DNA of 63,858 nt, the filler included, from Hausera hauseri (taxonomy: Eukaryota): NCBI GenBank assembly GCA_046269625.1. It is 12 parts of 12 records of this genome, joined end to end, with 100 filler letters (N's around TTAATTAATTAA, not from the genome) between each part and the next. Parts side by side here need not be neighbours in the genome. Positions count along the whole stretch, not along the records: positions 38,919 to 42,872 come from JBJURY010861632.1; 11 more parts are not named here. One strand, written 5' to 3'. Below are positions 27,415 through 53,920 of the stretch, in pieces. The notes under the pieces are model-generated. The model did not search any database. It saw nothing but the letters and a program-made list of their open reading frames with translations, and had not been told where the DNA came from. Both the position numbers and the translations under genes were made by a program. The number at the start of each line of letters is the position of its first letter. The stretch's first letter is position 1.

Positions 27415-28299
27415 NNNNNNNNNNNNNNNNNNNNNNNNNNNNNNNNNNNNNNNNNNNNTTAATTAATTAANNNNNNNNNNNNNNNNNNNNNNNNNNNNNN
27501 NNNNNNNNNNNNNNTTTTGGTCTATGTTGTTGTACAACAGCTCGCATTGTATTACATCAAACATAAGACTGACACACTTTAAACTAGTACATGACGTAAA
27601 CTTTTGATTCTGACACAGATACTTAGGCCACTTTAAACATTACTAGAATCTGTATAAAAATGTTTTATCTATGCGATTTTTTTAAAAAATAAGGTTACTG
27701 CAGAGACAGGCATTGCTTGTCTGTTTTACAATTTGAATTTGGAATTGATGTAATGTATACTGTTCTTTACGTAAGTTTGACAAACTATAACTTAACTAAC
27801 TAAGTTAACTAATCCTCTCACACGTAAGAGCGTCTATTGAAATCTGGAGTTACTGTGCTTACTTTCTTGATCAAAGGCACATGACTAGGTTCTATGGTCA
27901 ACGGGACTCAGTAGAATCCAGGTAACACGTCCCACACAGTGCCTAACAAAAAATCTGGGCGGAAGAGTTTATGATTTTGTTTCTCTTTAATCGACCCGTA
28001 AAAAACCAATTGATCTCTGGGTAGTGACTCTGAAGTACAGTCCAGGTGGGGACAGAGGAAAGCGAGATCTGGAGACGGAATACAGAAAGAGATAAAACTG
28101 AATTAAAAACCTGAACTTGTTTAGCTAAGACAGATCTAGATTTCTTATGTCAAAGAAATTAAGAAGACGCTAGTAGTGAGCGACATAAAATGATTAAAGG
28201 TATGACTGATTTCAATGTGTCAGTGAACTTCTCTTTGAACAAAGGATGGCAAATATTGAATTCATGCACATTTTAAAGTTAATTAGCATAATTAAAGCC

Positions 28300-28915: not shown

Positions 28916-30694
28916 TTTCAACCAAAGACTTATTTCTTACGTTAATTTGTTCATCGAGAGTCGTTCTCCAGATTGTGATTGTTTTCGACCCTACACCGTC
29001 CATGTGGTTTACATTGTAAGTCATATCTAACAATGTTATTCTTCTATCTGCGCGATGTCACCCGTGATTTTTCATCTCATGTAATCGATTCCGAAAGCGT
29101 GTTATTTTTGTATAACTATGGCGTCTCCTGCACCTTGTGTGATTTTACAAGAAACATGTATTGGCCCCTTGCTCAATGCAGCTTAGTCAGTTCTTGCCTG
29201 TTTCAGGATACATGTGACCTCACAGGAGTTGTATGAATTTATTACCCAGTGTTTTCGTAATAGTTTTTAAGCGCAGGAGGAGAATGATGACAGTTCATGC
29301 GTATTTTAGAGCGATGATTACTTCTACTTTTTTAAAAAAATTGAGGAGTAAACCATACACTTATCTCCTTTGAGACTGTTTGCATATGCGTGTATGGAAA
29401 TAACATAAAACAATATAGAATAGCAATGTAACTGGTATCTTTGACCATCACAAGCTGGGGAAATAATGAGGAGGGATAGAACCAACCACCGACTAGTCCG
29501 GAGTGCAGTGATGATGATCCAGCTCCTAACTCAGAATAACCATGTATGCTAAAATGAAATTTGATAACAAAAGGTGAAAACCGTGAAAAAGCTAATGTTC
29601 GATTTAAGCAAAGGTTGGAAAAAGGAACGCAAAAAATGAAGCCAATAATTGCTTCTAATAAGATAACAAGTTTTATGATATTACAGCATGAAAGCCATTT
29701 TAACGGCGTTTGATACGACATACGCTTACATGAAAGTCAATTTAACGGCGTTGATAATAGATATTGTGATAAGAAAGCCATTTGCTGGTCACTAGAAGGT
29801 TCATTCGTTCGTTCCTTCGTTCGCCGAATCTCCTGTAGGTGTGAGTGTTAGTTTGTTGCAACCGATGCAGTCGTACTCACCTGTACACCCATAACGTTCT
29901 AACATAAGAAGTTCACATGCCTTTAACGGATCCCGGCACTTGCAAGGCAAGTCCCACCACCACGAGTATTGTGTCTTATAGGCTGTTGTTGTTGTTCGAA
30001 ATCCACATCACCGAGCGTCAGCTCTTTTGAATGAGCCATGAGAAGGGTTGTTGCAGTCCTAAGAAGGACTATGGAGGAGGACAGCTGAGCTTTTCTGCTG
30101 TCTTGGTGGTGTCTAGGAGGTGGACTGAGGTCTTTCCTTGGGTAGGGCAATACCTGGCATTCCAGAAGTGTTCTAGCAATCAATTGAAGACCATCCCGAA
30201 CCTTCTCCTTTAGCCCGCAGGTTTCCCTACCGTTGCCCTGAGGCACGACTTGGGCGTGGGCAGAGGATCTTCACTGCTTATGATTCGTCAGCCCTGACAC
30301 TGTGTATCAGGGCCGACTATGGGTCGCCACTTTAATAAAGTACCTCCATTTTCGTGTCTGACAAGTAATTGGTTAAAATGGATTGTTTGTTTTAGTTGTC
30401 ATAGATTTATCATGTCACGTTTTTCCATACTTGATAAATTGATTTTTACTATTGCAGAATGGCAAATCTGACAAGCATGACTTAGTAAACATCACGTGAC
30501 GGGAAGACGCTATCTCAGAGCCTGCTGGAAGAAGTCAACGGTTTATGCAATACCAAAACGTATACCTTGTTAAATCAGGTTGCTAAAATTTCATAATGAC
30601 AAAGACGAGAACTACTGTCATACACCTATAGTCTAGGCTTTGTTCTGCAGGTCTGAAAATTTATAAAATTTAAATTTTTGAAAAACAAGGAAAT

Positions 30695-31942
30695 ATGGTT
30701 CAAATAGCAGCACAATCGGAAAACGTCATTCTAGAATCTTCAGAAATGTCAAATAATGCAAGCTTAGCTAAAGAGATGCAGTCTTTAGGAAGTCTATCGG
30801 ATGTTGAGATTACCCCAATTATCATAGGCGTCGCTTGTGTTATTATAGCTGGGGTCATCATTACAATTTTTATTTTTGTTTTGAAACGTAAAAGAAAATG
30901 TTTATTCAGCTCAATGGGAGAGTTTACACACGTCAAGAAGTCTTCAGCACCTTTAGCGAAAAACGAGATCCCTCCAGACTCAACTGTTTTGAATTCGGCG
31001 ACCACACCTGATGAACATGACTGTGAACTTTATATCAACTGCAGACTGGACAGTGTTCTACCAAACAAGCATCCTCAAAGAGGTCTACATTTAACACTTG
31101 AGAACCAACATTCTGCAGAAATACTGTATGAGGCCAAATCTGATGAACCACCGACACCTGAAAGTTCCTGTCTGTCTACAGACGAATCCATCTATTCCAA
31201 CACTTCACCATTGATTTCTCCGTTAACAATGTCACAATACAAAACATCTAAACTGCATAGGACAAAATCTGATGAGCCACCGACACCTGAAAGTTGCGAT
31301 ATGTCTACAGACGAGTCTGTCTATTCCAACACTTCACCGCTGATTTTCCCAAAGCACAGTTTATCGATGTCAACAAATCAAAGAACTAAACTACATTTAT
31401 CTGATCAGGAACGAATAAACAACATTAATGAATGCAAAGAAAATAATCAAAAACAAAAGAAATCCTCTGGAAACGGATTACATGCGAATTCTGTCATTCA
31501 GAATTGCGACAATTTATATACTAACTCTGATCAAACAGAGACTAATCTGATGCAAAGCAGGACAGAGGTTGTCTCGATTATAGACACAGTTTACAATTTT
31601 CGTCTTATTGATCCTTACACAGAAGTTACACCTTATTTAATGTACCAGAATAGTGAAACCGTTTCACTATCGAATGCAGGCATCGATACAAGAACCACAC
31701 ATGACAATGTCGAATACTTAAATAATCCAAATTCCTTCATAGCCACGAATAAATCAATTTATCAGAATTTTGTCAAATCAGAACCAGAGCTATTTGAAAG
31801 TGTTGCTTATGAGCGTTTCGAAATTGTAAATAGCAATTTTCTCACAAGTACAGAAGTTGATGAAGACTCCCAAAGCGTGTACAGCCATCTTGGTGAAGAT
31901 TTTCGTTGTCCGGTAAACATTTACGATGTTCTGTCAGAATGA
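30695..31942 (+). CDS. Host single-pass membrane protein with long Tyr-motif-rich cytoplasmic tail
   Basis: Intact 415-aa ORF. TM IIIGVACVIIAGVIITIFIFVL followed by KRKRK. Internal duplication KSDEPPTPES...STDES(I/V)YSNTSPLI. AATAAA at about 31966. Confidence 0.75.
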   Translation: MVQIAAQSENVILESSEMSNNASLAKEMQSLGSLSDVEITPIIIGVACVIIAGVIITIFIFVLKRKRKCLFSSMGEFTHVKKSSAPLAKNEIPPDSTVLNSATTPDEHDCELYINCRLDSVLPNKHPQRGLHLTLENQHSAEILYEAKSDEPPTPESSCLSTDESIYSNTSPLISPLTMSQYKTSKLHRTKSDEPPTPESCDMSTDESVYSNTSPLIFPKHSLSMSTNQRTKLHLSDQERINNINECKENNQKQKKSSGNGLHANSVIQNCDNLYTNSDQTETNLMQSRTEVVSIIDTVYNFRLIDPYTEVTPYLMYQNSETVSLSNAGIDTRTTHDNVEYLNNPNSFIATNKSIYQNFVKSEPELFESVAYERFEIVNSNFLTSTEVDEDSQSVYSHLGEDFRCPVNIYDVLSE

Positions 31943-34245: not shown

Positions 34246-37200
34246 CTAATGAGTCGCCTGGTTGTGTGTGGCTTGCCCGTCGCGTATAAAAAGCGGCATG
34301 AGCAAGTGTCGATTCGACACTGTGGGTTCGATCCCCACCTGCTTTGATGCGACGTACATGCTGCGCGCAATCGGGTACTCTTTTTGTCGAGCCTGTAGCG
34401 TTTTAATGAAGTCTAGGTATCTTTCATGCACTCCTGGTGCGACTCGACTCCGGAGCGGCAGGGGTTTAGCTACGTATGGTCGTACGCTTCGTTTCCGGAA
34501 GTATTGGCGTTGGGATAATATTTGTTTCAGTTTGGACTGGGGTTGGGTCATAGGCTACGGGAGTGTCCATATTGAATGGATCAATTCTGTCGTAGTTTTC
34601 TCGAAGCTTGTCTACTTCTCACATGCTTGGTACGTTTTGTTCGATAGGATCTTTGGTATCGGAATCGTGATAGCCGAATGCGGGTTTTACATTCGACAAG
34701 TGGACTATAAGTTCCTCATTGTCGCGCAGTATTTTAGCGTTGTGCTCAGTGATTTCTATGAGTTTGTAGGGGCCCGTGTAGTATGGTTCAAAACCGTGTT
34801 TTTAATGGCTTTCGAGCCAGATAAAGGATGCATCTCGTAGGTTCTTGGGCATGACAGGTTTCTTGTGATTGTCGTGGAATGTAGAGTTCGTGTCTATTGA
34901 CAGGAAATACTTCCGGGCTTGGTTGATAGCAGGAATTGAAGTTACTTCCTCGTTGCTCACCAAATCTTGTGGAAATGTGAGGTGGGCACCAAATAATAGT
35001 TGTGCCGTAGAGGCATTGGTGCTAGTGTTAGGAGTGTTTCTCCATCCTAATAGCACAGTGGGTAACGCATCCAGCCAATTCTTGTTTTTCTGGCAAAGGA
35101 TTCGCAGGGATGATTTGAGTGTACAATGAAATCGTTCAATCAAGCCATTCGCCTGTAGATGATAGGGTGATGTATTTATGTGCTTAGAACCAAGCAATTT
35201 TGTCAATTGGTTAAACATGGCTGACTCAAATTGGGTACCTTGATCTGTTATAATATTTTTGGGCACTCCAAATCGAGAAATCCATGTATTTAGTAACCCA
35301 GCCACAACGCTTTGCGTTGTTAATTGACGGATTGGAATGGCTTGGGGCCATCTTGTTTTCCGGTCCAGAATGGTTAGGATGTACTGATATCCATTACATT
35401 GGGGAAGTGGTCCTACTATGTCCATGTGGATTGTTTCAAACCGTGAACCAGTAGGATAGTGTAAAATAGGGAGTTGTATAGTCTTGTTCGCTTTGTACTG
35501 TTGGCAAAGTAAACATTCTTTTGTCCACCGCTTTATGTCGCTTAGCATGCAAGGCCAACAAACTCTACTGCTCAATAATCTAGCTGTGGCGATGGGTGTT
35601 GTGAATGGTGTCAAACGCCTGTTTCTGTAGGTTTGCTGCCAGAATTTGGCGTGGAAAACCATTGAGGATGGTATTGTAATGTATTCCATCCTTTGTGTCG
35701 ACTGTTTTGAAGAACGTAACATCGTCTTTATGTGGAGGGTTCGATCGGAGAACCTCTTCCGTGAAAATTGGGTCAAAAGATATTGTCAATATCCCAGTTC
35801 TGGAAAAGAAGTCAGCAACTGTGTTATCTTTTGCAGTTATGTGTTCTATCTGGAATGAAAATTTTGATAGGAATGAAATGTGCCGCTCTTGACGAAGGGA
35901 TGGGTTCTTCATACTCATCATGTGAATGAGTGGTTTTTGATCCGTACAGATTGTGAACACATTTTCTTCGAGGAAGTGTCGGAAGTGTTTGACACTGCGG
36001 ATTATGGCTAGTAATTTTCAGTCAAAGGCTGAATAGCGTTGCTCAGCCGAATTAAATTTGTGGGAAAAGAATTCAATTGGAGCATTTCTGCTACCAATTG
36101 ATTGGGCAAGCATGGTGCCTGCAGCGATTGTGAATGCATCTGTCGTTAAGGTAAACGGTGCATCTCGTTTAGGATAGTGTAGTGTGGGTAGGTGGAAAAG
36201 CGCCATCTTTGCCTGGTCAGTCTCATCGGTCCAGTTTACCTGGGATTTCTTGGGTCCTTGGCTTAGAGCAGATAGAGGTGACAAGATTTCCAAGCAATGC
36301 GAAATGTAGCGATGGCAGAAATTGATTGTGCTGAGGAAGCTGCGAAGTCCAGTCACTGTGGATGGCTTCGGTATTTGTTTGATGGATTTTAGTCGCTCAG
36401 GAAGTGGACTGTGACCATGTGATGTTAGTCAAAGTCCGAGAAATACGGCTTCAGTTTTAAAAAATGAACATTTGTTTATGTTCAACTGTAAGTTGTTTTC
36501 ATTCAACCTATAAAACATATGTTCTGGATGTGCTTTGTGAGTCGCTTCATCGTATGATGCAATCAATGTCACCTATATATGGGATTGCATAAGGCATGTC
36601 GATGGAGACTTGGTCTATGTGGCTTTGGAATGTTTGACTTACATTCCTTAAGCCAAAAGGCATACGTAGATACTCAAACAAACCAAAAGGCGTTATTACG
36701 GCTGTTTTTGGAATGTCTTCGGTAGCCACTGGGATCTGGTGGTATGCCCTTTCCAGATCGATTATGCTGAATATTGTTACACCAACGGTGTTGCATAGAA
36801 ATCGTAGATGGTGACGATATTCAACATTCTATAATCACCACAAGGCCGGTATGATCCGTCCTTTTTTGGAACCATGTGCAATGGTGATGCCCACGGTGAT
36901 GTAGAGCGGCGTATGATGCCTGTTTCTTCCAGATGTCTGAATTCGGCTTCCGCAGCTGCTGTCTTGACAGGATCAAGCTCTCTCCGGGGTTGCCGAATCG
37001 GTCGATTACATGATGTGACGAGAAAGTGTGATGTTTTCACCTCTTTCTGTGTTGGTTGTGCTGAGCGCTTCAATAGCTTAGGGTATTGCGCTTGCAGCAA
37101 TAATGCGATGTCAACGGAATTTGCGATTTTTATGCGCTTGACTGCGTTTATGGTTAGAGTGAATGCGGGTGGAGGTAGTGGATTGCTCCCGCTGGTGAGT

Positions 37201-37590
37201 TGTTGATTTCGGCAATGAACTGTGAGATCGTAGTAATCTAGGAAGTCAAAACCAAGCATTGGTTGCATGACATCGGCCAATATGAATGACCAAGTGTATG
37301 ATCGGCCTTGTAAGTGAAATTGTAGGTACAGTGTACCTGTGATTTTTATGCACGTGCCATTGGCAGCTTTGAGCGATGCGTGAGAGACCAGCGTAGGTCT
37401 AGCGTATGCGCTAGGTATCAGCGATAAAGCTGCACCAATGTCGATTAAAATATCGAGCTGTTTCGAGATGTCGGAGTGTAGTAGCTCCACCTCGAGGGTG
37501 AAAATAGCGTCGGCAGTGTGTTCGCTATTTGCATGCGGCAGTTGTGATGGTGGGGTTTCCAGTCGATGTGCCGTTGGTCGTCTTGGCCCA
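34246..37590 (-). pseudogene. pol: Gypsy pol (PR-RT-RH-IN), frameshifted
   Basis: ORFs 36777-37490, 36547-36729, 36018-36356, 35580-35960 and 34802-35776. Confidence 0.92.
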
Positions 37591-37591
37591 T

Positions 37592-38654
37592 TTAGTTTTT
37601 TGACGGCTTGTGAAATTTCCAGCCGGGTCGACAGACTTTTGCATCTGGACCGAAATGATTATAATAAATGCAAGTGTCTTGCATTTTTAAGTTTGCCGAT
37701 GGCTTGTCGAATTGACAACCATGGTAGCATTTATAGGCCGATTCGCCAAATCGTGTGTGGAAGTGGCAAATTTTGGAAAATTTGCCTTTCTACCTCTTGG
37801 GGGATTGGCGCCGAGATGACGGGTTGTCCCTGACTGGCAGATTCTTGTGCGTTACAAGTGCCTGCAGTGCGGCGATAATGGTGTCCAGCTGATTTTGATG
37901 GGTCGTTGTGACAGAATAGATACTTTCCGTCAGTGCGGATTCCACAGTGCCTTTAGTGCACTCGTATATTTAGTCGGCTTTTAATGCCATATCGCCCAAA
38001 GTGGTATCGGGCGGTAATAGCACCAATGCCGCTTGAATTTGATTGGGAAAACTACTTAAGAAGTAGCGCCGTAGTATGTGCTAGTTGATGTGTAGGTGCA
38101 ACTCAGCATTACTCAGGTCTGAGTGTAACTTGTGAAGCAGAGCAGACGGTTTCATATTGCTTGTCTGTGCTTGGTGAAGACCAAGTTGAATTGGTCCTGT
38201 TGGGATGGCAGATATGCTTTGAATATGGCTGTTTAATTTTGTCGAACGGTTTTTTATCTGACAGTAGCGTGTCCAGATCCGTTATGGCTGCAAGAGTTGT
38301 TGGCTGCAGGTATTGAATGAGTGTTAAGACCTTGTTTAGTTGGCCGGTGATTCTGCATTGAGTAGCCCATGTTTCAGACACATGGAACCACTTCAATGAC
38401 GTTCCGTTCAAACCTATGAAGAAGATTGGACATTCTAATTTGGGTGGTTTGGCCTGTGTTGCTGAAGCAGTTTTTGCTTTTGTGTCAGGCGTAAGGTTGT
38501 CAACGCCTCCTTTTACTTTCGAAGTCGCCAGTATGGTATTATTGTCAACCAAAATTGTATTAATTACGCAATTATTCTTGCGTAATAATTTTTCATTATA
38601 GGAAAATGTATGCTCGGGATATTGTTGGTTTAAAACTTCTAGCATTCCCGACAT
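37592..38654 (-). pseudogene. gag: Gypsy gag, disrupted
   Basis: Capsid-like ORF 38109-38654. CHCC-type remnant CIYYNHFGPDAKVC. Slippery AAAAAAC at 37595-37601. Confidence 0.7.
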
Positions 38655-38958
38655 AGTTAGGGTCGATGGGAAGCGATGAGCTTTCGTTTAACGCCAGTTT
38701 TGTACAATGAGTTGTACTTCGTTTGGGGTACAATCGGTCGATGTTGTGTGATCACGTTTGATGACGTTAGTGAGTGTAGCCGGATTGGTTTCGACGGCAT
38801 TTGTATGAGTTTTAGCCGNNNNNNNNNNNNNNNNNNNNNNNNNNNNNNNNNNNNNNNNNNNNTTAATTAATTAANNNNNNNNNNNNNNNNNNNNNNNNNN
38901 NNNNNNNNNNNNNNNNNNAATAATTAATTAAAAAGGACTAATTTTTAAAAAAAATGGG

Positions 38959-39094
38959 AGTAATTGTATAAGGAGGGTTATGGGTCGGTTTTTCAATTTT
39001 TTTAAAAAGTTTTCATGAATGATCGGTGGCGAACGGATGAAAATTTTTTTAAAAAATTGAGGGGCCGGTCCATAACTCTCCTTATACAACTACT
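38959..39094 (+). ncRNA. Long RNA stem-loop (58-bp stem, 20-nt loop)
   Basis: Arms 38959-39016 and 39037-39094 pair without gaps: 48 Watson-Crick pairs, 8 G-U pairs and 2 mismatches on the + strand. Confidence 0.65.
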
Positions 39095-39109
39095 GAAAGT
39101 GGAATAAAC

Positions 39110-40700
39110 ATGTATTAAAACAAAACAAAGAGCGACGAGGTTGGATGAACTAACGAAGGAGCTCGAAGTCTATATAAACAAATATGCTTTTACTGAGTCA
39201 GAGATCAAGAATAAACGAGAATTCGTACAAAGATGGCAAAGAAATGTAATTATAGAATTAACAGATTACCACCAAAAAGGATTCATCGATTCTAATGAAT
39301 TAGGCAAGCTATTGAAATTGATTCAGTAAGTCTGTGGAAACGGCATAGGTTTCCGAACTACGCAGATAAAAGAAATACAACCAAGATTGAAAGAAATTAG
39401 AGAAAACGTACAGAGAACAAAGACAGTTTTGATAGACCATGGACCTCCTGAAGCCGGAAATGAACCTGAATGGGATGCATATTTCGACGCAATACTTGTC
39501 GAAAAACCCATGACTCCAGTACAATTAAACAAGATAGAAACATATTTGCAGGACAGGTGACTCAATGTGGACATGTTTCTAAATTCAGCGCTAACTGAAA
39601 AAGACTTAATTGAACTAATTAACGTACATATTACAGAAAGTAAGTTAAGACAACTTATTCCTACCTTAACTAAATTATCTAACAAAAACACGATCTATAG
39701 AACGGTGCCGAAACTTTTAATAAGGAAGTATGCTAAAATCTTGAGGGCTAAACCTAAAATGGCGATAAAAGTAATGGTATCATCCGAATGGGTGGACGAA
39801 AAAAAATGCGAATTAACTACATATTCCTATGTGAGAAATGTAAGAGAATGACTGATAAACAACGGCGGAACAAACGCGTAAAACTACAGATTTTACTTTA
39901 GAGGTAGAATACTCGACGAACTAGAACAATTAATAGATGTTGGGATCCTTCCCGACGAAATAAACCGGATAGTGGCAGTAATGGCTAATGAACAGACAAA
40001 GCAAGAAGCTACACGTAAGGCCAAAACGAAGCAATGCGTAGGAAAAATTATGGGAGTCCGAAACGCTGCAATGTATTTTGAGTACTTACAAACGGATGAG
40101 GATAAGGAACTATACGACATAAACTTAGTGCCACTGAGTGAAGTAACCACTAAGGGTCCAAGACCGAAACGGCCAGTAGGTAGGCCCAAGAAATCGCGAG
40201 AAGAAGTGGACTATAATGGAGAATTGATTGCAGAATTGAGACAGATGTCGATTCCGACTCTTAGTGCAGACAACGAAGAATTAAACAAGTTAATGAAGAA
40301 TCTAATACGGATTGTAAATTGTTCCAGTCTTCTAGGTGATGTATTAGATGGTAAAGGAAAGATAATATTCGATGCAGCCAAAATGATGCGATGTTCACGT
40401 TTCAAACTATCAAAAAGTAACCTAACCGATGAATCGGTAATCGAAAAGACTATGATATGGAACACCAGCAAGGAATTGAGAAAATTATTATTATATATAG
40501 CTATCAAAATAAATCCTAATCGAGAGAGTGAAATCAATAGAGCTGTAAGCTTAGCACGTATGGCAGCAAGACGATTGCCCTACGAAGTAAACTGGTCAAG
40601 ATTATTTGACATCGAAGAAGACAGATGAAACGGTAATAAGCTCGACGATATGTTACGTAATTTAACAACAGCGAACGTTAGATGCCGGAAGAATGAATCA
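39110..40700 (+). pseudogene. Unknown ~500-aa helical protein with AT-hook-like motif, in frame with the downstream glycoprotein
   Basis: ORFs 39141, 39567 and 39972 share one frame and are separated only by point stops. Motif KRPVGRPKK. Confidence 0.6.
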
Positions 40701-40706
40701 AATTGA

Positions 40707-42805
40707 CTGATTAGCCTACTCACTTTGATGATGCTAATTAAGCATATAAGCGCTGTAACTGTCTACGACTGCGGTAAGTTCAAACTAGGACAGAGATATT
40801 CCTTAATGAATCTTGAAATATGCGAAGATGCCAGACCATACAAATTGGCGACAAAAGAGAAAAATTACTTTCTATATCAGCAGCAGGAATTGATATCGCT
40901 AGATGGAATAGAATGTATGCTGAGACGATGGCGTAATATTTTTCTCTGTGTTTTGGTTCATGGACATTCATCTATAATCAAACCAACGACTCCACTAATT
41001 CCAATGGACTTAGAACGCCAAAACGCCAAGCAAGCCAAGGAAACTGGGAAAATACAATGTGACAGTATGCAATTAGAGATGCAGCCAGGAAAAATAATTA
41101 GGGCATATAAAATAGTGGCCGGAAGATTGGATATGCATAGTGGACATTGTAATGGAGCAGAATACGACACCGGGAAGGGATTGGAGGCAAACGTAGTGGT
41201 TGTGGATTTCTACAAATCAGAAATGCGATCACAGGTGGTAATGTTCCATAGTGTCACCAAACTATATACAGAAAATCAAAAATGTCATTTACAAGACGGG
41301 ATCTGTACTTTTAGAAGTTCGGTTATAATATGGGAACCTCCCTCTGGAAGAAATTGTAATATTATTAAAATTAAAGAACTAAAGTTCAATGAGACTACAG
41401 GAAAGCGATATGTGGACAAATCAGAAACTAATTCGAGGACACGTGAGGATGTATCAGAACACTCTACACCTACTATATTAATTTCGGATCAGCATGAATT
41501 GAAATTTATTAAAAAAGAGATGATTTCTCGCTGTGATGTAGTGATGTTTGCTACGAACTATGAGGCGCTTTTCGTCGCAGAAACGGAGATAAGTGCGAAA
41601 ACTTATAAGCTAGAAATGCAGGATGTCCGCATCGAAGATTACCTGACGAATAGCGACAATTACTTTTAATACAAAGGACAAGTCGGAATAACGGAATTAT
41701 ATCATAAAATGATAATGAATGACTGCAAATTGGATACGGAAATCATGAGAACTAAAATGGCTCTGATATATGCAAACCCAGAATTAACTTTACCAATAAT
41801 TCCAATGAGAGAAGGAATTTTTGGTCGGGGAACAGGCGAAGTATTGCTAACTTATGAATGTGAAAAGAGAGATGTACCCATTAACGTGGAAGAAAAACGT
41901 TGCATTCAAGAACTTCCTGTTATTTACCAAAGTATTCCGAGATTAGCTACACAGCTGACGAGAGTGTTATTGGATAACGCTACCCAACCGACCTTCCTTA
42001 AAAATTGTAAAGCAAGCTTAGGAGAACCTATGTTTAGACGCAGTGACACAGATTGTGTTAGCTTGCCAAATGGAGGTATTATTGCCGCACCAAACAAATT
42101 AAGAGGAACAAACCTCGCAAAAGGAATTACAGACAATAAATTTCAAGACACTTCATCGAAATCATATATAGACCGAAGGAAACTGAGGCCTTTAGACAAT
42201 TCCTTGCCTTTCCACAACAACGAAAACATAAGTTAAACCGAGCTATGGCCTTGGTAGTAGACGACACCCGATATCAAGCTAAATCGGAATCTTTACTCGG
42301 TGTAAACCATTATCAGCGAGTAACAACCGAAATAATTTGCAAAATGTGGGAAAGATTTCTGATATTCGAAAAAGCTGCATCCGGATTCTAAGCGATATAT
42401 TTTTTGATACAGATGATTAAAGCAGTCATCCAAGCAGTAATAAATGGCTATGAAATATTTACGTTGACTGGATTTTCATGTAAAATATTAACGGCGATTA
42501 TAACGCCCTTTTGAAAGTTTTTAAAAGCATATGAAGAGAATAAATGGAAATCTGACGTAGAACGCCATGTTGGATATTACCACCGTAAAAGAAAAGGAAG
42601 GCCTACATTTCTGTACAAGCGGAAATTTATAAAGCATAACGCGGGAAGAAATAATTCAGATGATGAAGATCCTAAGGGAGGCGAAGCATTTTCAGGAATA
42701 AACCGACATAAGGCATACTCTGTCATTAAAACGCCGTTGCCTATGATACCTCCTACCGCCCCATTTTACAAAGATTGTGACAAACGATCCATGAATTCGT
42801 ATTAG
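40707..42805 (+). pseudogene. env: Class III fusion glycoprotein (chuvirus G/gB-like env), degenerate
   Basis: Signal LISLLTLMMLIKHISA then VYDC...YSL...EIC. GHCNG..Y. C....G.C......W. GEVLLTYEC...CIQELPV.Y...TRVL. Membrane-proximal W.RF..F...SGF.AIYFLIQMIKAVI..VING near 42350-42510. Confidence 0.8.
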
Positions 42806-43855
42806 ACAGAAATCTATAAAAGGACAATTAATGTAGAAGACCTTTACAAAGGAACGAAACGTTAGGGGATCTNNNNNNNNNNNNNNNNNNNNNNNNNNNN
42901 NNNNNNNNNNNNNNNNTTAATTAATTAANNNNNNNNNNNNNNNNNNNNNNNNNNNNNNNNNNNNNNNNNNNNAAGCGAGCCCCGTACCGGACCTATTCGG
43001 ACTTCCTGACAGTACGGAAGCTGTTGCAACAAAGCCTTTTCTTGCGCACCTTGTCAGGTTGGGACGAGATGACCCCTACTCCTTACTTGCGGGAACGCTC
43101 CATCGGTTCTACGACGACGGAGAAAATTGACGACTCTGACTCGTTGGTTTTCCTGCCAGTTTTCTTAAGATTGATGGTGGCAGCCGACCGCCTTTACAAA
43201 TCACTGGCTCTCTCGGAGAGCCACTTGATTCCGGTACCCCGAATTACTGAACAGCGGCATGCAAGGACGTCGAGCTCCGACGATATGCCTAACCTGTGTC
43301 GCAGACGTCGTTTAGATCCGTCACGACGAAAACCTGCACCGTTGGATTCAAGTTCGAACGACGCTTCGACTTGTACACGCCGAAGTCTCCGAACTGATCC
43401 GGCACTCTCATCGAAGGACGAATCATACGCCTCGACGGATGCCGTTGACGATGTGAATAAAAGTGTTTATATTATTTGTTTGTTCTTTTTATGTTTCGTA
43501 TGTCAGTCATTTTATTCGACTGCTTTTATAAGTTGACTCCAGGTTTTATGTTTCGGAGGTCGATTCGTAGGGAAGAAACCCCTGAACCATAAAACGACAC
43601 TTTCCCGATTGAAATATGATGCATGTAAAATCTAGTGGACACTTGAGAACATACTATCTCGGCTTCCATTATTTAAAAGGTAGTGTGTTAATGTCACACT
43701 CGGTAACATGTCCTCGATAGTTGATATTAGCTAACATTATGGAAACAGTGTTTATACTATAGCTATATATATGTGTGTATGTATATATATATGTGTGTAA
43801 CACGATTATAAACAAATTATGTGAGGAAAGGTTGTATTATTTTTACTATTATTAG

Positions 43856-44514
43856 ATGAAGCTGCAGAATGATGCCATTTTCCAGATTGTAGGTCCCAGT
43901 GGAAGTTGCAAAACGCACTTTGTTTGTAAACTATTGCAGAACTACCGTGACATGTTCCATTTACCGCGGTACAATTACACATACTGGCATCAGGGTGTTG
44001 GTGATGATGATGAGTCCGGTTTGACATTTCGGGAATTCTGTAAACTGAAATCGATAGCGATAATTGATGGGTTTGATGCGAACTGGTATGATCGATTACG
44101 AAACGATGATGTTATTGTCATTGACGATTTATTTTAAGAGGCAACGAAACAAACCGACTTCAACAACCTGTTCACAAAGATTGCACGGCACCGCGGTATG
44201 ACGGTTATTTTTATTACGCAAAACATGTTTCATCAGAGCGGACAGCATCGACCAAAAAATATAAACGTACACTATTTGGTGTTCTTCAAAATCCCCGTGA
44301 TCAGACTATCATTGATTATGTTGCACGACAAGAATTTCCTCACAACCGGGCCTACTTGATAGATGCATATCATGATGCTACGACAGAGCCACACGGATAC
44401 TTGTTCATCGACTTTATACAACAGTGGCCCGATGACATGCGTGTACGAACAAACATTTTCAATCAAAAAGGTGTATGTGTCTATAAACAAATTCAAAAAT
44501 CGACGACACGATAG
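43856..44514 (+). pseudogene. A32/FtsK-like packaging ATPase
   Basis: IVGPSGSCKT (Walker A), IVIDDL, RH.GMTVIFITQN, HGYLFIDF. Confidence 0.9.
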
Positions 44515-44730
44515 TGATAATACGAAGAATTTCCGAAAAACCATTGTTAAACGTAAACCTACCAAGCGGGTGCCCGGCAAGAAACGTGTATCAAAGCGAA
44601 CCACCGCTACAGTCAAGCGATTAAACAATTCTGTGCTTCGAACAACAGCAGCAGCAGCTAGACGCAAATTATCGTCACAGTGGCAACGGTTATAAACAAC
44701 TACGTCTCATCAACATCAATACGTCAAAAA

Positions 44731-45054
44731 ATGCGATTCAAACGTAGTCAACCGTACTTTATTGCTTTGCTCAAGGCACCTACGAGACATAAGCGAAACA
44801 TGCTGCGATCATTCTCACAGTTTGTAGTGGACAATTTGATGGAAATTTTATAAAATATTGTTGTGGGTCACGTTGACATTGGTAGTAGAAAGCGCAGTAT
44901 ACTAAAGTATCGAAAACGACTCATCGGCCTTGCCAACGCCAGTACTAAATGACTGAAACGAGAGGTTATGTACCAGCAAGATGGCGGATTCCTTGGTTCA
45001 ATTCTACCGGTTGTCACGTCATAACTGGGTTGATTCATTGCTGGAACAGTTTAG
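44731..45054 (+). pseudogene. Conserved small Polinton protein with QxGGFL motif
   Basis: MRFKRSQPYFIALLKA...EIL.NIV.G...QQDGGFLGSILPVV. Partial copy at 19139-19320. Confidence 0.6.
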
Positions 45055-45165
45055 TATAAACAATGAAGGTAAGTATATAATGATTCGGCAATATGGGTGC
45101 ATGTTTTTCATCTTTCTGTCCCAGTTTACCGAACCTTTCGTTTACGTTTCGTTCTGATTGTTGTA

Positions 45166-46257
45166 ATGCAAGCAGAAAAACCGACACCATCGACGGAAAC
45201 AACGATAAACGATGTGTAGTTCAACCCACGTGATCCTGTCGGCTATACTGGCGTCGACAAACTGCCAAAGATTGTCAAACAGACTCGGCAACACACCAAA
45301 CGTTGGCTTAGGAAACAGTTAGCATACAGCCTAAACAAACCGATAAGAAGGTGGTTTTCAACTCGTGCATACCGTGCTGCCGGTGTAACTAATGTATGGC
45401 AAATGGATCTGATGGAAATGATTCCGTACGCCAGCATTAATGATGGGTATCGATACGTGCTGATATGTGTTAATGTGTTTAGTCGTTTTGCACGTGCAAT
45501 TGCCGTAAAATCTAAATCCTGTAAAGAGATTGCCGACGCTGTTCAAACACTGATACATCAACAATAACAACAACAACCGAAGCATTTACAAACGGATTTG
45601 GGTAAGGAATTCTACAACCCCCACGTTGCAGCGGTCTTGAAACGGTTCGGCGTAAACCAATACTCAGTGTTTTCCCAATACAAGGCTGCACTCACTGAAC
45701 GATTTAATCAAACATTCCGCGGTCGCTTAAACAAATTCTTTACGAAGCAAGGCAACAAGCGCTGGATAGATGTACTGCTGGATATTATTCATGCATACAA
45801 TCATTCGACACGCCGTAATATTAATGGATTACGGCCGGTTGACGTAATCGATGATTTGGACATGTGGCTTTATCAAAACAACCGAACAACACAACGAGGA
45901 CGACAGGCAATTAAACGTCGCCCAAAATATAAAGTCGGTGATTATGTACGTATTTCAAAGCTTAATACGACGCCATTCATAAAGAATTTTAGTCAGAACT
46001 GGAGCGATGAGGCTTTCCGAATTTCAGCAATCAACACAAAGCAAAGTCCGGTTATGTACGTTTTAGAAGATGAGAATGGTGACGAAATACATGGCAAATT
46101 TTACGAACAGGAACTGCAAGTACTATTGGAAAAACCTAACGTGTATCCTATTCAGAAAATTCTACGTTCACGTGGCAAAGGTTAAAATAAACAATATCTC
46201 GTCAAGTGGCACGGATACACTACACCGAGTTGGATATTTACATCGCAGATTGAGTGA
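45166..46257 (+). pseudogene. Retroviral-type (rve) integrase with chromodomain-like tail
   Basis: DDE motifs WQMDL, LQTDLGKEF and TERFNQT, plus QYLVKWHGY. Three premature stops. Confidence 0.92.
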
Positions 46258-47205
46258 TGATTATTTATTTGGTACTTGATAGTAACAGATCATTATCACA
46301 ACATGACGACGACGACGCCGACGACGATACCGCTAAACAGTTTACCGTGCACTTAAACCAACCGGTCGATTTACGCTACGGAGCCTGGGAAGTGGCTTTA
46401 ACGGAATTCATGTTTACATTTTCACTAATGACAATAAGTCAGAACAGCGGTATTTACTTTACTCGACAAGAAACTTACCCTATTTTAAGTCGTTTGCGGA
46501 CGATCCGACACAATAACCGATATTTTCTTCGCAATTATTCTCGAGAAAATTTTTCGGTTTATGCTTATTTTTCAAACTACCGTATGAAACTAAAGCATCG
46601 AAATCCCATGGAAATGCAGTTTAAATCTATAGCTGATGCTCAGGCATGGGGTTTTCAAGCAGTCAATGTAAACTCAAAACGTCTACGGCGAGGTGGACAT
46701 GTTATAATTGGTAAAAAATTGGACTTTTCATTTGATGCAGAATCTGATATTATAGTAAAGTGGACTAAGTCAGAAGCAGTCTTACTCTATTATACTATAC
46801 CACATAATTTAATAATGGAAACGGAACTGGAATTGTGTGAATACATCAAGAAATCGGCTGCATTAGCCGTAAAGACACGTGAAATAAACGCATATAATCG
46901 TATTTCGATTACACTACATGACAGTGTTACATTTTTTGCCTTTGATGAATTATTGGTTCGAAATCTGGGTTTTCCCCAACGTGAATACAATCAAAGCATT
47001 GTTGGACAATCTATTGTTGCCAAATACAAACCACAACTTTATGGAGCATTTCACTAAATCAACATTGTAACGGACTTAACCGAATCCGTACTCCTTGGTG
47101 GAGAACGTAAACAACTGCTGGCTTCTAACGAACTGGATTCTGACACGTACAAAACATCATCATCGGGTGAAACTGTTCGCGTTATTATGTTCAGACCTAT
47201 GTACT
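46254..47205 (+). pseudogene. Minor capsid/penton protein 1
   Basis: YLVLDSN.S...TAKQFTVHLNQPVDL..GAWEVALTEF and INIVTDLTESVLLGG..KQLL. Confidence 0.8.
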
Positions 47206-47541
47206 NNNNNNNNNNNNNNNNNNNNNNNNNNNNNNNNNNNNNNNNNNNNTTAATTAATTAANNNNNNNNNNNNNNNNNNNNNNNNNNNNNNNNNNNNNNN
47301 NNNNNACCGGTCTCAAAATGTCTAATGTACGCAATGATGATTTAAAGTGTCGACTAAACATTGAGTTGCAAGGACACAAGGAAAAAGCCGGTATCAAAAT
47401 CCCGATTTGGCATGTAGCTGAAGCACATTTTAATTATCAATAAATTTTGTTGTTGTTTTGTTTTACCGTTTTTCTTTCATCAACCCAATTAACGATTAAA
47501 TATATACGTGTAATTTTAATATTGGTATAAGAATAATGATA

Positions 47542-48003
47542 ATGAATGATGTAAATATTACCTTAACAGACGAAAGTGCCTTTGTACCGAGACGTGTTAC
47601 AGCAAACAGTGCAAGCTACAATGTGTTTTCAAATGTCAATACGACAATTTCGAACAGCACAATCACATGCATAACAACTGGGATTTGATTGGCGATTCCA
47701 CCCGGTTACTACGGCCAACTTTTATCGAAAATCGGACTGGAAAAGCTCGGACTGACGGTTGTGGGCGGCGTCATTGATTCGGATGTTCGTGGTGAAATTA
47801 AAGTGTTGGTGAAAAAGCAATCCGGCGAACCGTATGCTTTTACGAAAGGCAGTGCAATCGCATAAATCGTTTTTCTTCGCTTTGATGAGGCGGAATTCAG
47901 TGTAATGTCACCGGAACAGTGGGTACTGTTTTGTGTCAATGAAACGCTGAATGAACGCAAAGAACGCGGTTTCGGTGATTTAGACAAAACTACTTTTGTT
48001 TAA
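47542..48003 (+). pseudogene. dut: Trimeric dUTPase (missed by the ORF track; two stops)
   Basis: P.R.TANSASYNV...TTGI*LAIPPGYYGQL...VGGVIDSDVRGEIKV...IA*IV...RKERGFG, covering dUTPase motifs I-V. Confidence 0.9.
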
Positions 48004-48089
48004 TGATTTGTGATGATAATAGCAATAGTTGTTTTGTTTGTGTTATAGAAAGAAAATGATTCTGTACATGATAAGTAATAGCGGCAAGA

Positions 48090-48564
48090 TTTATAGATAT
48101 TGAAACTTTCAAAGATGATAATGCCTAGTACCTGATAAAGGAATTATGCATTATGGGCGTCGGTAACAATTTCAAACCGCTTGTGTACGTATTAAAACCC
48201 GGTGTTGTGTAGAATAACCTGACAGAAAAAGCGAAAATTACCAATGGATCTCATACGACGTCGTCATGGACTTTATTGGCACGAAGGCAATTCAACGTTT
48301 TGTGTATCATGTACCATGCGAGACATTTGTGATCGTTTTGACATTGAAAATACAATATTTTACATTAAAGATCTAATTGGCGGACAAAAGTTTACGCAAC
48401 TCCATTCACAGTTTCCCGAGTTGCGAATGACGACGTATTCAACATCGAACAGCTCGCTGGCGATGGTACCTAATAATACTGTATGTCCGTATCGTGATCA
48501 TGGACCGCATTGTGCTTACAAAAAATGTCAACGGCTTTGTATTGACTATATTTCATGCAAATAA
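48090..48564 (+). pseudogene. Polinton-associated DEDD-exonuclease-like protein
   Basis: IDIETF...IKEL.I...YVLKP....L....K.TN...RHGLYWHEG...CPYRDH..HCA. Frameshifted. Confidence 0.5.
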
Positions 48565-48701
48565 ATGTATTTCTGTTTCTTTTTTCTTTCCGTAAATATG
48601 GTCCGTCGTATTGGTCAGTTGAATAATTCAAAAACTATAAATACGAGTAGGTTATAGTAGTAATAATAATCATCACGGAAATAGTTAATCAACTGAAGCA
48701 A

Positions 48702-49142
48702 TTGCAAAATATTGACGGATTGTCAATTTCAGACTCGGTGCAATGGTGGCAAGTACTTGATAGTGAGCTGGTTGCAAGAGCAGCAGGTGAATTTGGATTT
48801 AAAGATTTAGAGTCAATAGCATTGATGACAGCAACAGATTGCAGCTCTATAGAAAATCTAATTATGTTAAATCAAATGTACATTCACCGATTGTACGATA
48901 CAAATTATTTTAATACTGTTGAAAAGGTACGCGGTGAATTAGCGAATTTGAAAGAGAAAATAATGGACAAAGTACGAAACTTACAGTTTATGTATGTACT
49001 ATGTAAACAAAGAAAAGTGGATACGGTATTCTTAATGTGCGGCCATCTTGTAGTTTGTCAAATGTGTTCCACCAAAGTAATACACCAATGTCCAGAATGT
49101 AAATGTGCTATAATAAAAATTGTAGACATTTATTACGAATGA
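48702..49142 (+). CDS. IAP/Mdm2-type C-terminal RING protein
   Basis: VLC.....TVF.MCGHLVVC.MC......CPEC...I......Y. The first Cys is replaced by Tyr. No BIR domain was seen. Confidence 0.7.
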   Translation: MQNIDGLSISDSVQWWQVLDSELVARAAGEFGFKDLESIALMTATDCSSIENLIMLNQMYIHRLYDTNYFNTVEKVRGELANLKEKIMDKVRNLQFMYVLCKQRKVDTVFLMCGHLVVCQMCSTKVIHQCPECKCAIIKIVDIYYE

Positions 49143-49274
49143 CTTCAATAACGGAACATGGGCTTAAATGACGTGGAGGTAATTTGTATCATTGCGATGA
49201 GATAATACTCAAAGTAAATGTCTATTGTTTGCAATGAAAACACACCAGTATGAACAAATTTGATATAAATATGG

Positions 49275-49773
49275 ATGCAATTTCATTTCACGTTTCTCTT
49301 ATTTAAAAAAAGGCTTTGGAAAACAATTCAGCAGGTGACATTGTCTCAAAAAAGCCAAGGTACAGCGAATATTCTCAGAAATTCCCGGTTGTATAATGGA
49401 TACAACTTACATTATCTGCGCAACGCTATTCAATTGCCACTGATGCAAACTGTCAAAATCAAACTGGTTAAATATGGTCTATTGGTGAAAAAGATCAGCG
49501 ACGATGATTTGGATACGATGGAAGACACAATTAGAAAAGTTGACAGTGATTTGGCGTTGAGTAACAATATCCGAGATATATCGTCGATTTTTCTCAAAGG
49601 AAATATGGTGAAAATTGTCAGTTCACATGGTGGAGAAATCGCAGCAGCAACAATAAAAACAGTTTTGCCACGGAAGGATCTAAAAGTCTTCTAACACTGA
49701 AGTTGGAAGGATACAAGGGTTTGCACAACGTTAAATTACCAATATTGAAGCTGGGAAAGATTACGTTGATTTG
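49275..49773 (+). pseudogene. Unknown Polinton accessory protein
   Basis: 139-aa ORF with a probable frameshifted tail and a downstream AATAAA, converging on polB. Confidence 0.35.
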
Positions 49774-49974
49774 ACTTACTTTGTTTTTGATTTTAGCTTA
49801 TGATGATGAATAAATTTTATTGGTTTTGTTTGTTTGTTTTTTATATTGTTTCTCGTCACATTAAGTTAAACATAAAAGTACATTAAGTGATAATAAAATA
49901 ATAAAACAAAAGGCAAAACAGTGCACAATATACATTACTTATAAAACACAGCTAACAACAAAATGCCATAGTCA

Positions 49975-52900
49975 ATTGATCTCTCTGCACCGATTTAATC
50001 TGTGTGTGCGTGTTGTATTCCAAACGCCAATGTCAGTACGCCCAATTCTTATTCCGCCCCACCCACTTTCGCTTGTCACCGTTGCATGACAAAGCAACCT
50101 TTTTCTTTTGTGGTGTACAGCTGGTGCTTAATCTATCGTACGGTCGTTTGAGACACAACAGCCTTTTCTTCTTCTTCTTCTTGTCCATGATAGACGCGGC
50201 GATAATCACGGTGATTTATTTCCGTCTTCTTCAGCTGGATACCTTTTGCCCGCATTTTTGGCCCACAGTCCATCAGAAGACTCTAGCACTTTGGGCGCAA
50301 AAATATCCATTCCCTGTATTGAACCTAGCCTTCACTTTCGTCCTTAAAGCAGCCGATTTTGTTTGTTATCGGGCTGCTGTACAGAGGATGGTTCTGCAGG
50401 TAGTTGGACGTGTCCAGTAGACCATCTGACATTATTTGTCGGAACACCTAGTCATGATTTATGTTATTCAGCTCAAGGAAAAGCTGTCTGTGTCACCGGC
50501 AATGATACTAATCTCATAGCCGTCGAACATTTGCCGGTAACGTGCCAAATCGCGATACTGGAGCTCGTACATTCGCAACTTGCTCAAATCCAATACCACT
50601 TGTCCGATATAGCTTTGTCGATCCAGTACGACATCTTCTCTGTTTAGAAACACGGCGACCAATCCATCGGCAATGTGCATTGATCGCCTGAACTGGGCCT
50701 TGCTGGTGTATGTAACCAGTCGTTTTTTGTTATTGCACAGGCGCATATTGAGCCGCTTCTTCAAATTCTCCACAATTTTTCCGTACAGTGAATGAGCTTG
50801 TAATAGTCCTTTTCGAACTTTGTACAAGCTGCGGCTCGTTTTTCTGAATTTCCGTCAATGTATGCCTTGAATATCAGCGGCTGATTGAATTGGTTTGCGC
50901 GATATATCTGTGTTACATGTACACCGAGCTGCATGTAGAACTGTTGCATACGCCAATGGACCACGTAATTCAGCTTCGGTTCATGCGTCATGAGCAGTTT
51001 CTTTACGTTTGAGCCTGGTGGACACTGAATAAATGGTGCGACCGGTAAATCATTCAAAACATCATGCAAATCATCTGGTACCTAGAGATCGATCTCCATC
51101 AGGTATTGAACTGAGCCTGCCATGTCTTCTCGTGGTAGGTTGACCATTATGTCATCCAGATCTTGTCTGTCGACTACCCATTCGAATGAACCGTATGGCA
51201 AGGGTTGCAAAAGCGCCCAGCAGTACAGGTTATTAATATCTCTATACAGCAGTGATGTGGTATCGGCGGTAGCACTGACCTGATGCTTGTTGACAAAAGT
51301 TATGCCACCGTGAATATTAACATCAAACAGCCAGTACATTTTCGGGTCTTGCAGCAGCTCAATATCTCGATTCAGTGACACTAGAGCTGACGCCCCATTT
51401 TTTCCCGGTATAGAATAAAAGTTGAGTGGCTCCAACCTATCTTCAGCCAACGCTTTTGCTCGAAACGCCTGGAACACATCGGCTAACAGGTACACGTCCA
51501 GTTTAAAATACTAGAGAATGTAATCCAACATGTTTCTACGGCCGAGTTCTGTCCAACACCTCTGTGTTTCCCGGTATTCATCCTTTGTGATACCTGTCCA
51601 TCGCGGCGGTAATTCCTCTGCTGTCCGGAGTCGCTCATATGAGGTTGCAAAGTCATATAGAAATATGCCTTTGCTGCGTGCACTATGTGTGGGGAATTGT
51701 GTTTAGGTTATTGGCACATCCGGCAAGGCATTTACCAGCTTCGCCAGTGATTCATTGAGAAATTCCAATGAATCAAGGAAGCGTACCTGGAACCGGTTTA
51801 TAGGTGCTGACAGGGACAGGTACTTCTCTATTATTGTTGGGATTATGGACAGGTCCCAGTGTGGAAATCCGTTGATGGCCCATTTGAGTATATGATGACA
51901 ATCATAACCTCGGAAATTATGAAAGATCACCGGTAGGAATGGCCGCACACGCCTTGCCAAATTGCATGAATTGCATGCCGCTGCTAGGAATCGACCGGTA
52001 AAATGATCATTATCCGGTACGAGCCATTCCTGTGCGTCAAACGGTAATATTTTGTGGCACAGGTAACATTCTTCTGTGACTGCAAACGTCAGGCGTTCGT
52101 ATTCGTATGTCCAAATCAGGAGTTTTGTGCTGTTATTGCGATACCACTGTGCGATTTCCGATTCAACTATTGCTTCCAAATGATTCAGGAAATCACGTAC
52201 AGAGTCCCAGCCATGAAACATGTAACATTGCGGTTGACATGCAGCTTTTATTGGAACAATAACATTTCAATGGCGATTGGAACATGTTTTTGATCGTATA
52301 CATTGTGCCGCAGTAGGATTCCCTCAATATCAGCATATACCACATATGCTGGACTGTCCGTTTTAGATTAGTCACTAAATTGCAGCTCCTTTTTGATTGA
52401 CATGTCGTACATAGTTGTTCCTGATATAATTTGTCTGCACAGCGTCACATGTTTTTTCCAAGTGGTTTCTGATTTGAAGCCATGCAGACATACAGGACAC
52501 CATTTACAACGTATACGCTTTTCGATGAACTGATGGTGGTCCATGTTCAACAGTCGGTCCAAATTTGTTACGGCCACGTAATGAAATTTTTCTGCCTGAT
52601 CCAACAATAACAAATTTACTGTGCGTCCATTCGGGTTCCGACTTCGATAGATTATATCCACATGTGGATTCTTGTAAATTTCTTTGTCTGCCGGTATTTC
52701 AACTATTGCATTGTACCGGAACACGTTGATTGACAGCGTTGGATTACGCCGTTCAAATGTTGGAATGGTTTTTCGTTTCATCGGCATCCAGTTTTTGTCG
52801 AATTTCAATTCGGAGAAATACTGCCGATACTGACTTGGACAACATGTCTGTCCACTTCGTCATATTTTAATACCGCCAGAATACTGTAAATAAAACAGTA

Positions 52901-53920
52901 ATTATCGTCCGTGTTTTACATTCATTACCGCATATGAGTGCTTTAGAGCTTCAGGTGTTGATATGAATGAACGTCCGGACAGTTAAATTATGTCAATCGA
53001 CTATGTTATAATAAAACCGAGAGTGACGATTTTTATTATTCGCCAACCACTGCCCTTTTCGGTGTAGTTGGCAATTTTTAGGTCCAGCTTTTCGCCTATA
53101 TCGGCAATGAAATCTTTGGAATATGGAACTGCTCGATGTGACAGGTACCATTGTTTCCTGTCACTCTGCAGATTATCAAAATCTGCAAGTGCATAATATT
53201 GAACTTTGCAGTTGTGGTTTTTGAATTTCTCCACTTTGGTTTCTAACCGATTACGCACATGAGCGGGCACATGCCTTAGTTGAGTTGCTGATCTCGCCGA
53301 GATGTTTACTTTTATGTCCACGTAAGATCTGTTTACATCGTACTTGACAGTAATGGGTGGTTCCTGCTGCTGCTCCGTATTGCTGCTTTGCAGGTATTCG
53401 TCAAGATTTGTTGATGCTTGACGTTTTTTGCTTGTTGAGGGAATACTGCTATTTTCTGCCGCCATTAATATTTTCTTTTTCGACCTCTGAAACTGGTTCA
53501 AGTGGTCCCAGTGCTCATTATAAAACTGTTCATAGTTGATTTCACCAACTATAGAACAACAATCGGGACAAACGTAGGCCCGTTTACAGTGCATCGTTGT
53601 GGCGCCATAGCATTGCTCCATTGCACTATGGCAACCATCCACGTCGTTCACTGTACTTGTACAGTACCGTGAGTACATGGGCAATGCACTACCATCATCT
53701 TCTTCGACCGTGTTGTAAACGGTCCGAGATGATGCTTGTGCATCTTATAAAAATCGGGGTACGGACATTTGGCTGAAATATTATTACACGTCGGACACAG
53801 ATATGAGTCCGGACCAATGCTGTAATATTTCGCCATCTGTTGATGGCACTGACCACCCCCCCCACATGTATACGAGAGACGCAATACATGGGATATTACT
53901 TGATTTCTAAATTTAAACAA
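49975..53920 (-). pseudogene. polB: Protein-primed family B DNA polymerase (second lineage), near full length, frameshifted
   Basis: KGSGW, VVYADIE, CYLC...DHFTGRFLAAACNSCNL, VIFHNFRGYDCH, RFLDSL, LDVYLLADVF, DINNLY.WAL.QPLP, KDYYKL..SLYGK, GDTDSF. Confidence 0.92.

Follow-up and report, generated by a model that had tools for sequence, protein, structure and literature searches.

Flatworm, nematode and bryozoan elements with the order GAG-ENV-POL have been described by Chary & Hayashi (eLife, PMC13524379), whose text also reports that Ty3/gypsy elements carry gB-type env. In that account one planarian element, Smed_6, is labelled GAG-ENV-POL, and the Schmidtea elements are given at 1-215 copies. 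Here we describe a related locus in a stretch of 63,858 nucleotides of Hausera hauseri DNA (assembly GCA_046269625.1), referred to as the window. One of its contigs (JBJURY010861632.1, 38919-42872) carries, on the plus strand, a hairpin, an open reading frame (ORF1) and a gene for a class III fusion glycoprotein (Env). The parent of this locus is probably a flatworm gB-type GAG-ENV-POL Ty3/gypsy errantivirus, present here as a decayed copy. The more complete reading, to which we give a probability of roughly 0.5, is that the contig, one dead member of a repeat with many copies, holds the 5'-to-middle part of such an errantivirus and has a divergent Gag as its ORF1.

The window consists of 12 separate contigs with 11 N-TTAATTAATTAA-N linkers between them, so adjacency across a linker is not evidence of linkage. 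The fusogen gene region fills one contig of 3,954 nt with a GC content of 0.37 and an AT skew of +0.21. A single plus-strand frame, 39108-42233, has only seven stops in 1,042 codons (39327, 39558, 39849, 39879, 40626, 40704 and 41667), exactly where an earlier note on this DNA had placed them, while 1,000 base shuffles gave a mean of 78 stops and never fewer than 52. This frame is coding sequence in decay. With each stop taken as X, residues 534-960 match the Pfam family PF24664, Monjiviricetes_fusion, with an E-value of 1.2e-31 over profile positions 5-424 of 653 (109.8 bits, the gathering cut-off being 27 bits). A further part of the same profile (478-602) is matched in a second frame at 42164-42535, with an E-value of 4.3e-17 and 61.8 bits against the cut-off of 27. 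The chuvirus/gB-like call made in the earlier note was therefore right, and its enveloped retroelement with a chuvirus-like or gB-like class III fusogen is supported by PF24664 together with the planarian Env motifs described below. Its single frame of about 1,200 residues was not borne out, since the glycoprotein changes frame between 41987 and 42164. The fusion ectodomain occupies 40755-41987 in the first frame, interrupted by the stop at 41667. The C-terminal part follows in the second frame at 42164-42535 with stops at 42389 and 42512, and hydropathy places a membrane-anchor-like stretch at about 42374-42439.

The placement among flatworm elements comes from comparison with supplement 2 of PMC13524379, which lists 229 Env domain I-II sequences; 95 rows were compared in full and all rows were word-searched. 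Compared by eye, six Schmidtea rows (Platyhelminthes_C1a) follow the Env of this locus motif by motif. In the first part, the common motifs are Y-x-[VI]-YQ then EC, a histidine-serine stretch, G-x-C-x-G-x-x-Y and a valine run; in the later part they are TP-x-hydrophobic-S, [MLI][RK]F[IVL]K and a closing C-x(4-5)-TNY. Locally the likeness is greatest between REDVSEHSTP here and REDISEKSTP of Smed_4, identical at 8 of 10 residues. All eight short patterns taken from the six C1a rows occur in order in Env, although these patterns were written with the Env protein in view and so describe the likeness without testing it independently. Word searches over all 229 rows are a fairer check of specificity. 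The word TNY is found at 17 places, and the six at the closing position are the six flatworm rows; three of the four places with FIK are flatworm rows as well. The insect rows that were compared have the central cysteine motifs in common with Env and end mostly in TEHP-like sequences.

Since Env matches planarian GAG-ENV-POL errantiviruses, pol is expected downstream and the leader before Env falls in the Gag slot. A Ty3/gypsy pol thus likely lay beyond the right contig end at 42872, and the host would be a flatworm or something like one. That the parent element is not on this contig, as first noted, holds true, with its other genes missing from 38919-42872. The suggestion of an undescribed system with pol upstream is not supported, as Env matches planarian GAG-ENV-POL elements and an in-frame env behind gag is already present in Burro. 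A conventional gag-pol-(extra ORF)-env element, either Ty3/gypsy or Anakin-type BEL/Pao, would make this contig the 3' part, with the hairpin between pol and the extra ORF. Chuvirus-like env does lie downstream of pol in mosquito BEL and insect gypsy elements (PMC10084718, PMC7642597), and LTR (long terminal repeat) elements can have extra ORFs between pol and env according to the text of PMC6431247. However, the Env motifs fit the flatworm GAG-ENV-POL group and not the insect rows compared, and by eye there is no polypurine tract or LTR in the few bases past the Env frame, where the contig ends. We consider this arrangement very unlikely. Two further retroelement groups, HEART and Troyka, were dropped as candidates because nothing ties either to the sequence; the literature results for HEART were unrelated.

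The locus belongs to a repeat family. In one sequencing run, X1, 36% of the sampled words were found, and 12,412 of its 15,501,002 contigs lay on the contig stretch with identities of 80-100%; together they cover 30 of 30 bins, the hairpin among them. By identity, 467 of these contigs stood at 99% or above, 1,728 at 95-99%, 4,626 at 90-95% and 5,591 below 90%. Single-site differences were carried by up to 100 X1 contigs at one site, and transitions were strand-symmetric (A>G 174, T>C 183, C>T 166, G>A 179). X1 is one run of undefined kind, perhaps from the stretch's own sample, and its depth is not a copy number. Among the sequencing runs listed for the sampled words none was an RNA run. The X1 pattern is that of an old dispersed element and not of a single viral insertion.

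This pattern bears on another origin, an endogenised segment of a negative-strand RNA virus (Jingchuvirales-like, with a nucleoprotein or matrix gene followed by the glycoprotein gene, G) that was later amplified, the hairpin being the joined genome ends. Monjiviricetes gave the Pfam family its name, ORF1 is of nucleoprotein size, no retroelement enzyme lies on the contig, and the plus strand is A-rich with its AT skew of 0.21. Nevertheless, many diverged copies cover the whole stretch of the contig, the motifs of G match planarian retroelement Env, and Pfam shows no nucleoprotein match for ORF1. An A-run marking the gene end between adjacent genes is a feature of negative-strand viruses. No A-run of six or more occurs between ORF1 and G (such runs lie only at 38947, 39051, 39799 and 41511), although decay could erase one. 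Scans of viral and metagenome contigs returned a sole locus, L001, whose 30 matching residues lie in a phage terminase/portal-like region and were put down to chance. A viral segment of this kind is, in our judgement, most unlikely.

ORF1 (39015-40628, plus strand) spans about 510-540 codons with stops at 39105, 39327, 39558, 39849 and 39879, and its start is uncertain. The predicted product is basic (pI 9.3) and helical. Its sole relative among 1,835,955,588 representatives searched with HMMER is a protein of 150 residues, P0003, with 45% identity over residues 1-124 and an E-value of 1.5e-16; P0003 is a one-member ENA cluster encoded on a contig of 2,157 nt. At the position of the 39327 stop P0003 reads through with a residue, and about 99% of the X1 depth has another letter within at least two of the seven stop codons, 39558 and 39879. 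For these reasons the stops in the frame are mostly damage. In 38919-39104 all three frames are closed (4, 5 and 6 stops per about 62 codons). ORF1 therefore begins near the hairpin, as a first or separate ORF and not in the middle of a giant frame like that of Burro. A start at 39110 or 39141, as once assumed, is not tenable because the similarity to P0003 already begins upstream of the 39105 stop. The only in-frame ATG within 39003-39200 is at 39015, at the top of the 5' arm of the hairpin, and the first methionine of P0003 maps there ungapped, with only 5 of 32 residues in agreement. This is a hint that ORF1 may start at 39015.

Within ORF1 a basic patch, RPVGRPK (40170-40190, plus strand), is predicted to resemble a nuclear localisation signal or to bind nucleic acid; the pattern arose in 31 of 20,000 residue shuffles but was chosen after the sequence had been seen. 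The core of an AT-hook is RGRP. The longer KRPVGRPKK, previously described as AT-hook-like or nuclear-localisation-like, is indeed present, but its AT-hook half falls away, with VGRP in place of the RGRP core and no Pfam match at E-values up to 5. Structure prediction gave ORF1 alone a mean pLDDT (the AlphaFold confidence score) of 35.8 and P0003, modelled with two sequences, 57.4. With these low-confidence models a fold search of BFVD gave no match at E 0.001 or better, and a wide PDB fold search gave at best generic helical bundles at Z 6.5; such blanks do not make the ORF1 fold new. PDB sequences yielded no matches, and the protein atlas had no usable match for P0003. Homologue searches among longer proteins came back empty for ORF1, as did those of the G region against proteins of 573-1,824 residues and of a 320-residue G ORF against proteins of 176-560 residues, these being weak blanks as the method uses shared 5-residue words. 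By position ORF1 is the ORF of the Gag slot; by sequence it is an orphan.

Several observations weigh against our reading of the contig. In ORF1 there is neither a CCHC zinc knuckle nor a Pfam Gag match, and by eye it does not show the capsid motifs that can be seen in two plain Gags in other parts of the window. No pol, LTR or primer-binding site lies on 38919-42872, where 40 nt precede the hairpin, nor does the contig have a long direct repeat within it. The Env comparison was made by eye on 95 of the 229 rows, without a tree or a scored alignment; the table of Env sequences contains no true chuvirus glycoproteins, and three mosquito BEL rows were outside the comparison. Moreover, the same env lineage can sit in different gene orders. 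As for the Gag tests, the two plain Gags of the window, used as controls, also missed all Pfam capsid models and each other, so these tests are weak.

The same lack of a Gag feature in Pfam and in the CCHC search favours a different role for ORF1 within the same parent class. Under this alternative, which takes in the model of the earlier note, ORF1 would be an accessory or matrix-like protein encoded between an upstream gag and env. It may have been joined to Env and cut free by signal peptidase, and its basic patch would direct it to the nucleus or the membrane. ORF1 and Env lie in one frame, and Burro has long unannotated or accessory segments between gag and its in-frame env, as the text of PMC6431247 describes. 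A gB-type Env with two flanking transmembrane segments, reported in PMC13524379, also fits an Env-fused ORF1. Another A-rich contig of the window, 59695-63858, has Gag-like ORFs on its minus strand that include one zinc knuckle (Pfam zf-CCHC); behind them extend several hundred codons of basic, helical-looking sequence that is unannotated. The contig has an AT skew of 0.20 on the coding strand, like that of 38919-42872, and by eye no protease in the extension; it may represent the 5' part of a further element with a long polyprotein. Its long extension behind a zinc-knuckle Gag counts for an accessory ORF1, but no similarity was found between ORF1 and that extension, and the protein atlas had no usable match for the Gag extension at 60361-61476. 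Frame sharing is itself a one-in-three chance, RPVGRPK is not a canonical AT-hook, and the junction with Env, examined next, argues against a fusion. We regard an accessory ORF1 as possible but unlikely, and a divergent Gag is somewhat ahead of it.

Whether ORF1 and Env were made as one protein or two turns on 40626-40754. An in-frame ATG at 40650 opens a predicted signal peptide of 35 residues (40650-40754, plus strand, from the ATG list and a hydropathy scan) that is broken by the stop at 40704. Its hydrophobic stretch covers residues 533-547 of the read-through (40704-40748), just before VTVYDC at 40755, where cleavage was judged by eye. The internal signal peptide before VYDC that the earlier note proposed thus has its hydrophobic stretch in place, but its internal position is called into doubt by an ATG of its own at 40650, 21 nt past the 40626 stop. 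For that reason a polyprotein is not established. Against fusion, the 40626 stop is followed by this ATG, which opens a complete signal peptide, so that only the 40704 stop need be damage. The two stops also fall within 27 codons at the junction, which has a probability of 0.015 at the mean stop rate of the frame, although a closer pair, 10 codons apart, exists inside ORF1 and weakens this argument. On the side of fusion are the common frame of ORF1 and Env and several precedents. Nematode elements with one continuous gag-env-pro-pol ORF were reportedly described by Sacco et al. in 2022. In planarian Burro, env lies in frame between gag and pol (PMC6431247), and the two transmembrane segments flanking gB-type Env in PMC13524379 are what an internal signal would look like. 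The main text of PMC13524379 makes no statement on gag-env fusion. We give an ORF1-Env fusion somewhat less than even odds, so that translation of Env from its own ATG is slightly favoured over continuation of ORF1. Even a fused ORF1-Env would belong to a known kind, the Gag-Env-type precursor.

Upstream of ORF1 the contig carries a long RNA-type hairpin (38959-39094, plus strand), an inverted repeat with two 58-nt arms and a 20-nt loop region, 83% Watson-Crick paired. The segment 38925-39110 folds at -73 kcal/mol (z -11.6) and its opposite strand at -55.2 kcal/mol (z -10.9). On the plus strand eight of the 10 positions outside Watson-Crick pairing are G-U and one is A-C (p 0.02), so that the sense RNA makes a much better hairpin than the antisense. 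This bias fits selection on the RNA, or adenosine-to-inosine editing that reverse transcription made permanent. In Rfam the hairpin stays below the gathering score of every family, the only matches being to microRNA precursors far below their cut-offs. In retroelements, signals for packaging and translation are found in a structured leader where the first ORF begins. The hairpin is likely a 5' untranslated structure, and adjacency alone ties it to ORF1. A possible -1 frameshift site, TTTAAAA at 38944-38950, 8 nt before the hairpin, was rejected since all frames are closed there. In the main text of PMC13524379 the word hairpin occurs once, for a protein fold, and stem-loop not at all; no RNA hairpin is mentioned.

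At the other end of the locus, Env closes with a predicted cytoplasmic tail, basic and about 109 codons long (42536-42865, plus strand, pI 9.9, stop at 42803), which contains PTAP at 42752-42763. In retroviral Gag, PTAP is the late domain that binds Tsg101. P[TS]AP arises in 32 of 20,000 shuffles of the tail, a figure that overstates the surprise since PTAP was noticed before it was tested. The motif suggests Env-assisted budding and offers a lead. A literature search for PTAP in a retrotransposon glycoprotein tail yielded retrovirus reviews only. The protease motif D[TS]G[AS] is absent from every frame of the last 720 nt or so of the contig.

Taken as a divergent Gag-Env segment of a GAG-ENV-POL errantivirus, the locus may have worked as follows. 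The hairpin in the RNA leader at the ORF1 start would likely serve as a packaging or translation-control structure, and ORF1 could form the cytosolic core, its basic patch making the contact with RNA. The signal sequence at 40650-40754 would bring Env into the membrane, whether translation of Env begins at its own ATG or runs on from ORF1. Env would then form a gB-like trimer whose basic, PTAP-bearing tail might help budding. A bolder version is that Env is made as one precursor with a non-Gag cytosolic protein of about 530 residues, which signal peptidase frees and which binds the start-hiding hairpin, while PTAP drives budding through the endosomal sorting complexes required for transport (ESCRT). 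We think this quite unlikely. If true, it would be an Env-centred module of assembly and self-regulation, not described for retroelements with class III fusogens.

The other contigs of the window contain further mobile-element remains. Ty3/gypsy-like gag, protease, reverse transcriptase and RNase H (Pfam) lie on the plus strand of 13268-18018, with no env between gag and pol; the stretch after RNase H has, by eye, the look of what we take to be an OTU-type domain. The minus strand of 34802-38687 carries a decayed gypsy-like gag-pol with an integrase match in Pfam; although it adjoins the Env contig in the window, it is a separate contig and not the parent. Three contigs (18319-22979, 42973-47205 and 55144-59594) have long direct repeats in common at 81-90% identity, and their ORFs presumably include, by eye, fragments of Polinton/Maverick ATPase, integrase and capsid region. 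By eye we also take ORFs of 47306-55043 and 24662-27462 to be fragments of a protein-primed DNA polymerase and a RING-finger protein (48651-49142), which fits more Polinton-like pieces. An ORF with PEWPAA on the plus strand at 378-1049 presumably resembles the cohesin loader NIPBL/Scc2, with no significant match in Pfam. Finally, a 422-codon ORF at 30674-31942 (plus strand) has one membrane-spanning-like stretch, an internal 95-nt repeat and a tyrosine-rich tail, and only weak Pfam matches. No other contig of the window was found to resemble ORF1 or G.

The locus offers three handles on how such elements work, namely the junction of ORF1 with Env, a hairpin of high stability that covers the likely start of ORF1, and PTAP in the Env tail. 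No description was found of the orphan ORF1, of the hairpin or of PTAP in the tail, and the figures and GAG sequences of PMC13524379, which were outside the comparison, may show the junction. Literature searches on GAG-ENV-POL retrotransposons found only PMC13524379 and its bioRxiv version, and those on flatworm env elements and on Burro follow-ups gave nothing on ORF1 or the hairpin. Expression of a membrane protein from mid-genome and budding of GAG-ENV-POL elements are apparently not addressed in PMC13524379. A dead copy and an already published architecture limit the significance of the locus. With it, a highly amplified family from another host would join a group drawn from three flatworm species (nine rows in PMC13524379).

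Compared with known systems, the locus is like the Jingchuvirales glycoproteins in passing the PF24664 cut-off in both frames, but no L or N gene is recognised here, and the many genomic copies do not look like a single viral insertion. Nematode endogenous retroviruses (NERV; Sacco et al. 2022) are said to place Env before pol; the nematode Env rows compared, however, lack the motifs common to the flatworm group and the Env here. Anakin BEL/Pao and insect gypsy elements (Dezordi et al.; PMC10084718, PMC7642597) use the same broad glycoprotein family as env, but carry it after pol, and the insect rows compared end mostly in TEHP-like sequences and not in TNY. Burro/GYPSM1, the giant gypsy of planarians (Arkhipova & Yushenova 2019, PMC6431247), has Env between gag and pol and a long, partly uncharacterised segment before Env. 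However, as described there, its Env is kin to gypsy Env and to the F proteins of paramyxoviruses and baculoviruses, whereas the Env here is of the gB type (PF24664), and its polyprotein of about 4,900 residues includes BIR, MATH and BCL2, while ORF1 is without those Pfam domains and its frame is closed upstream. The closest relatives are Smed_errantivirus_1-6 (HSV/gB-type Env, Platyhelminthes_C1a; PMC13524379). Although the copy here is decayed and cut at both ends, and the likeness rests on Env and not on GAG, the two have in common the lineage motifs of a gB/chuvirus-like Env, many copies, and a long ORF immediately before env.

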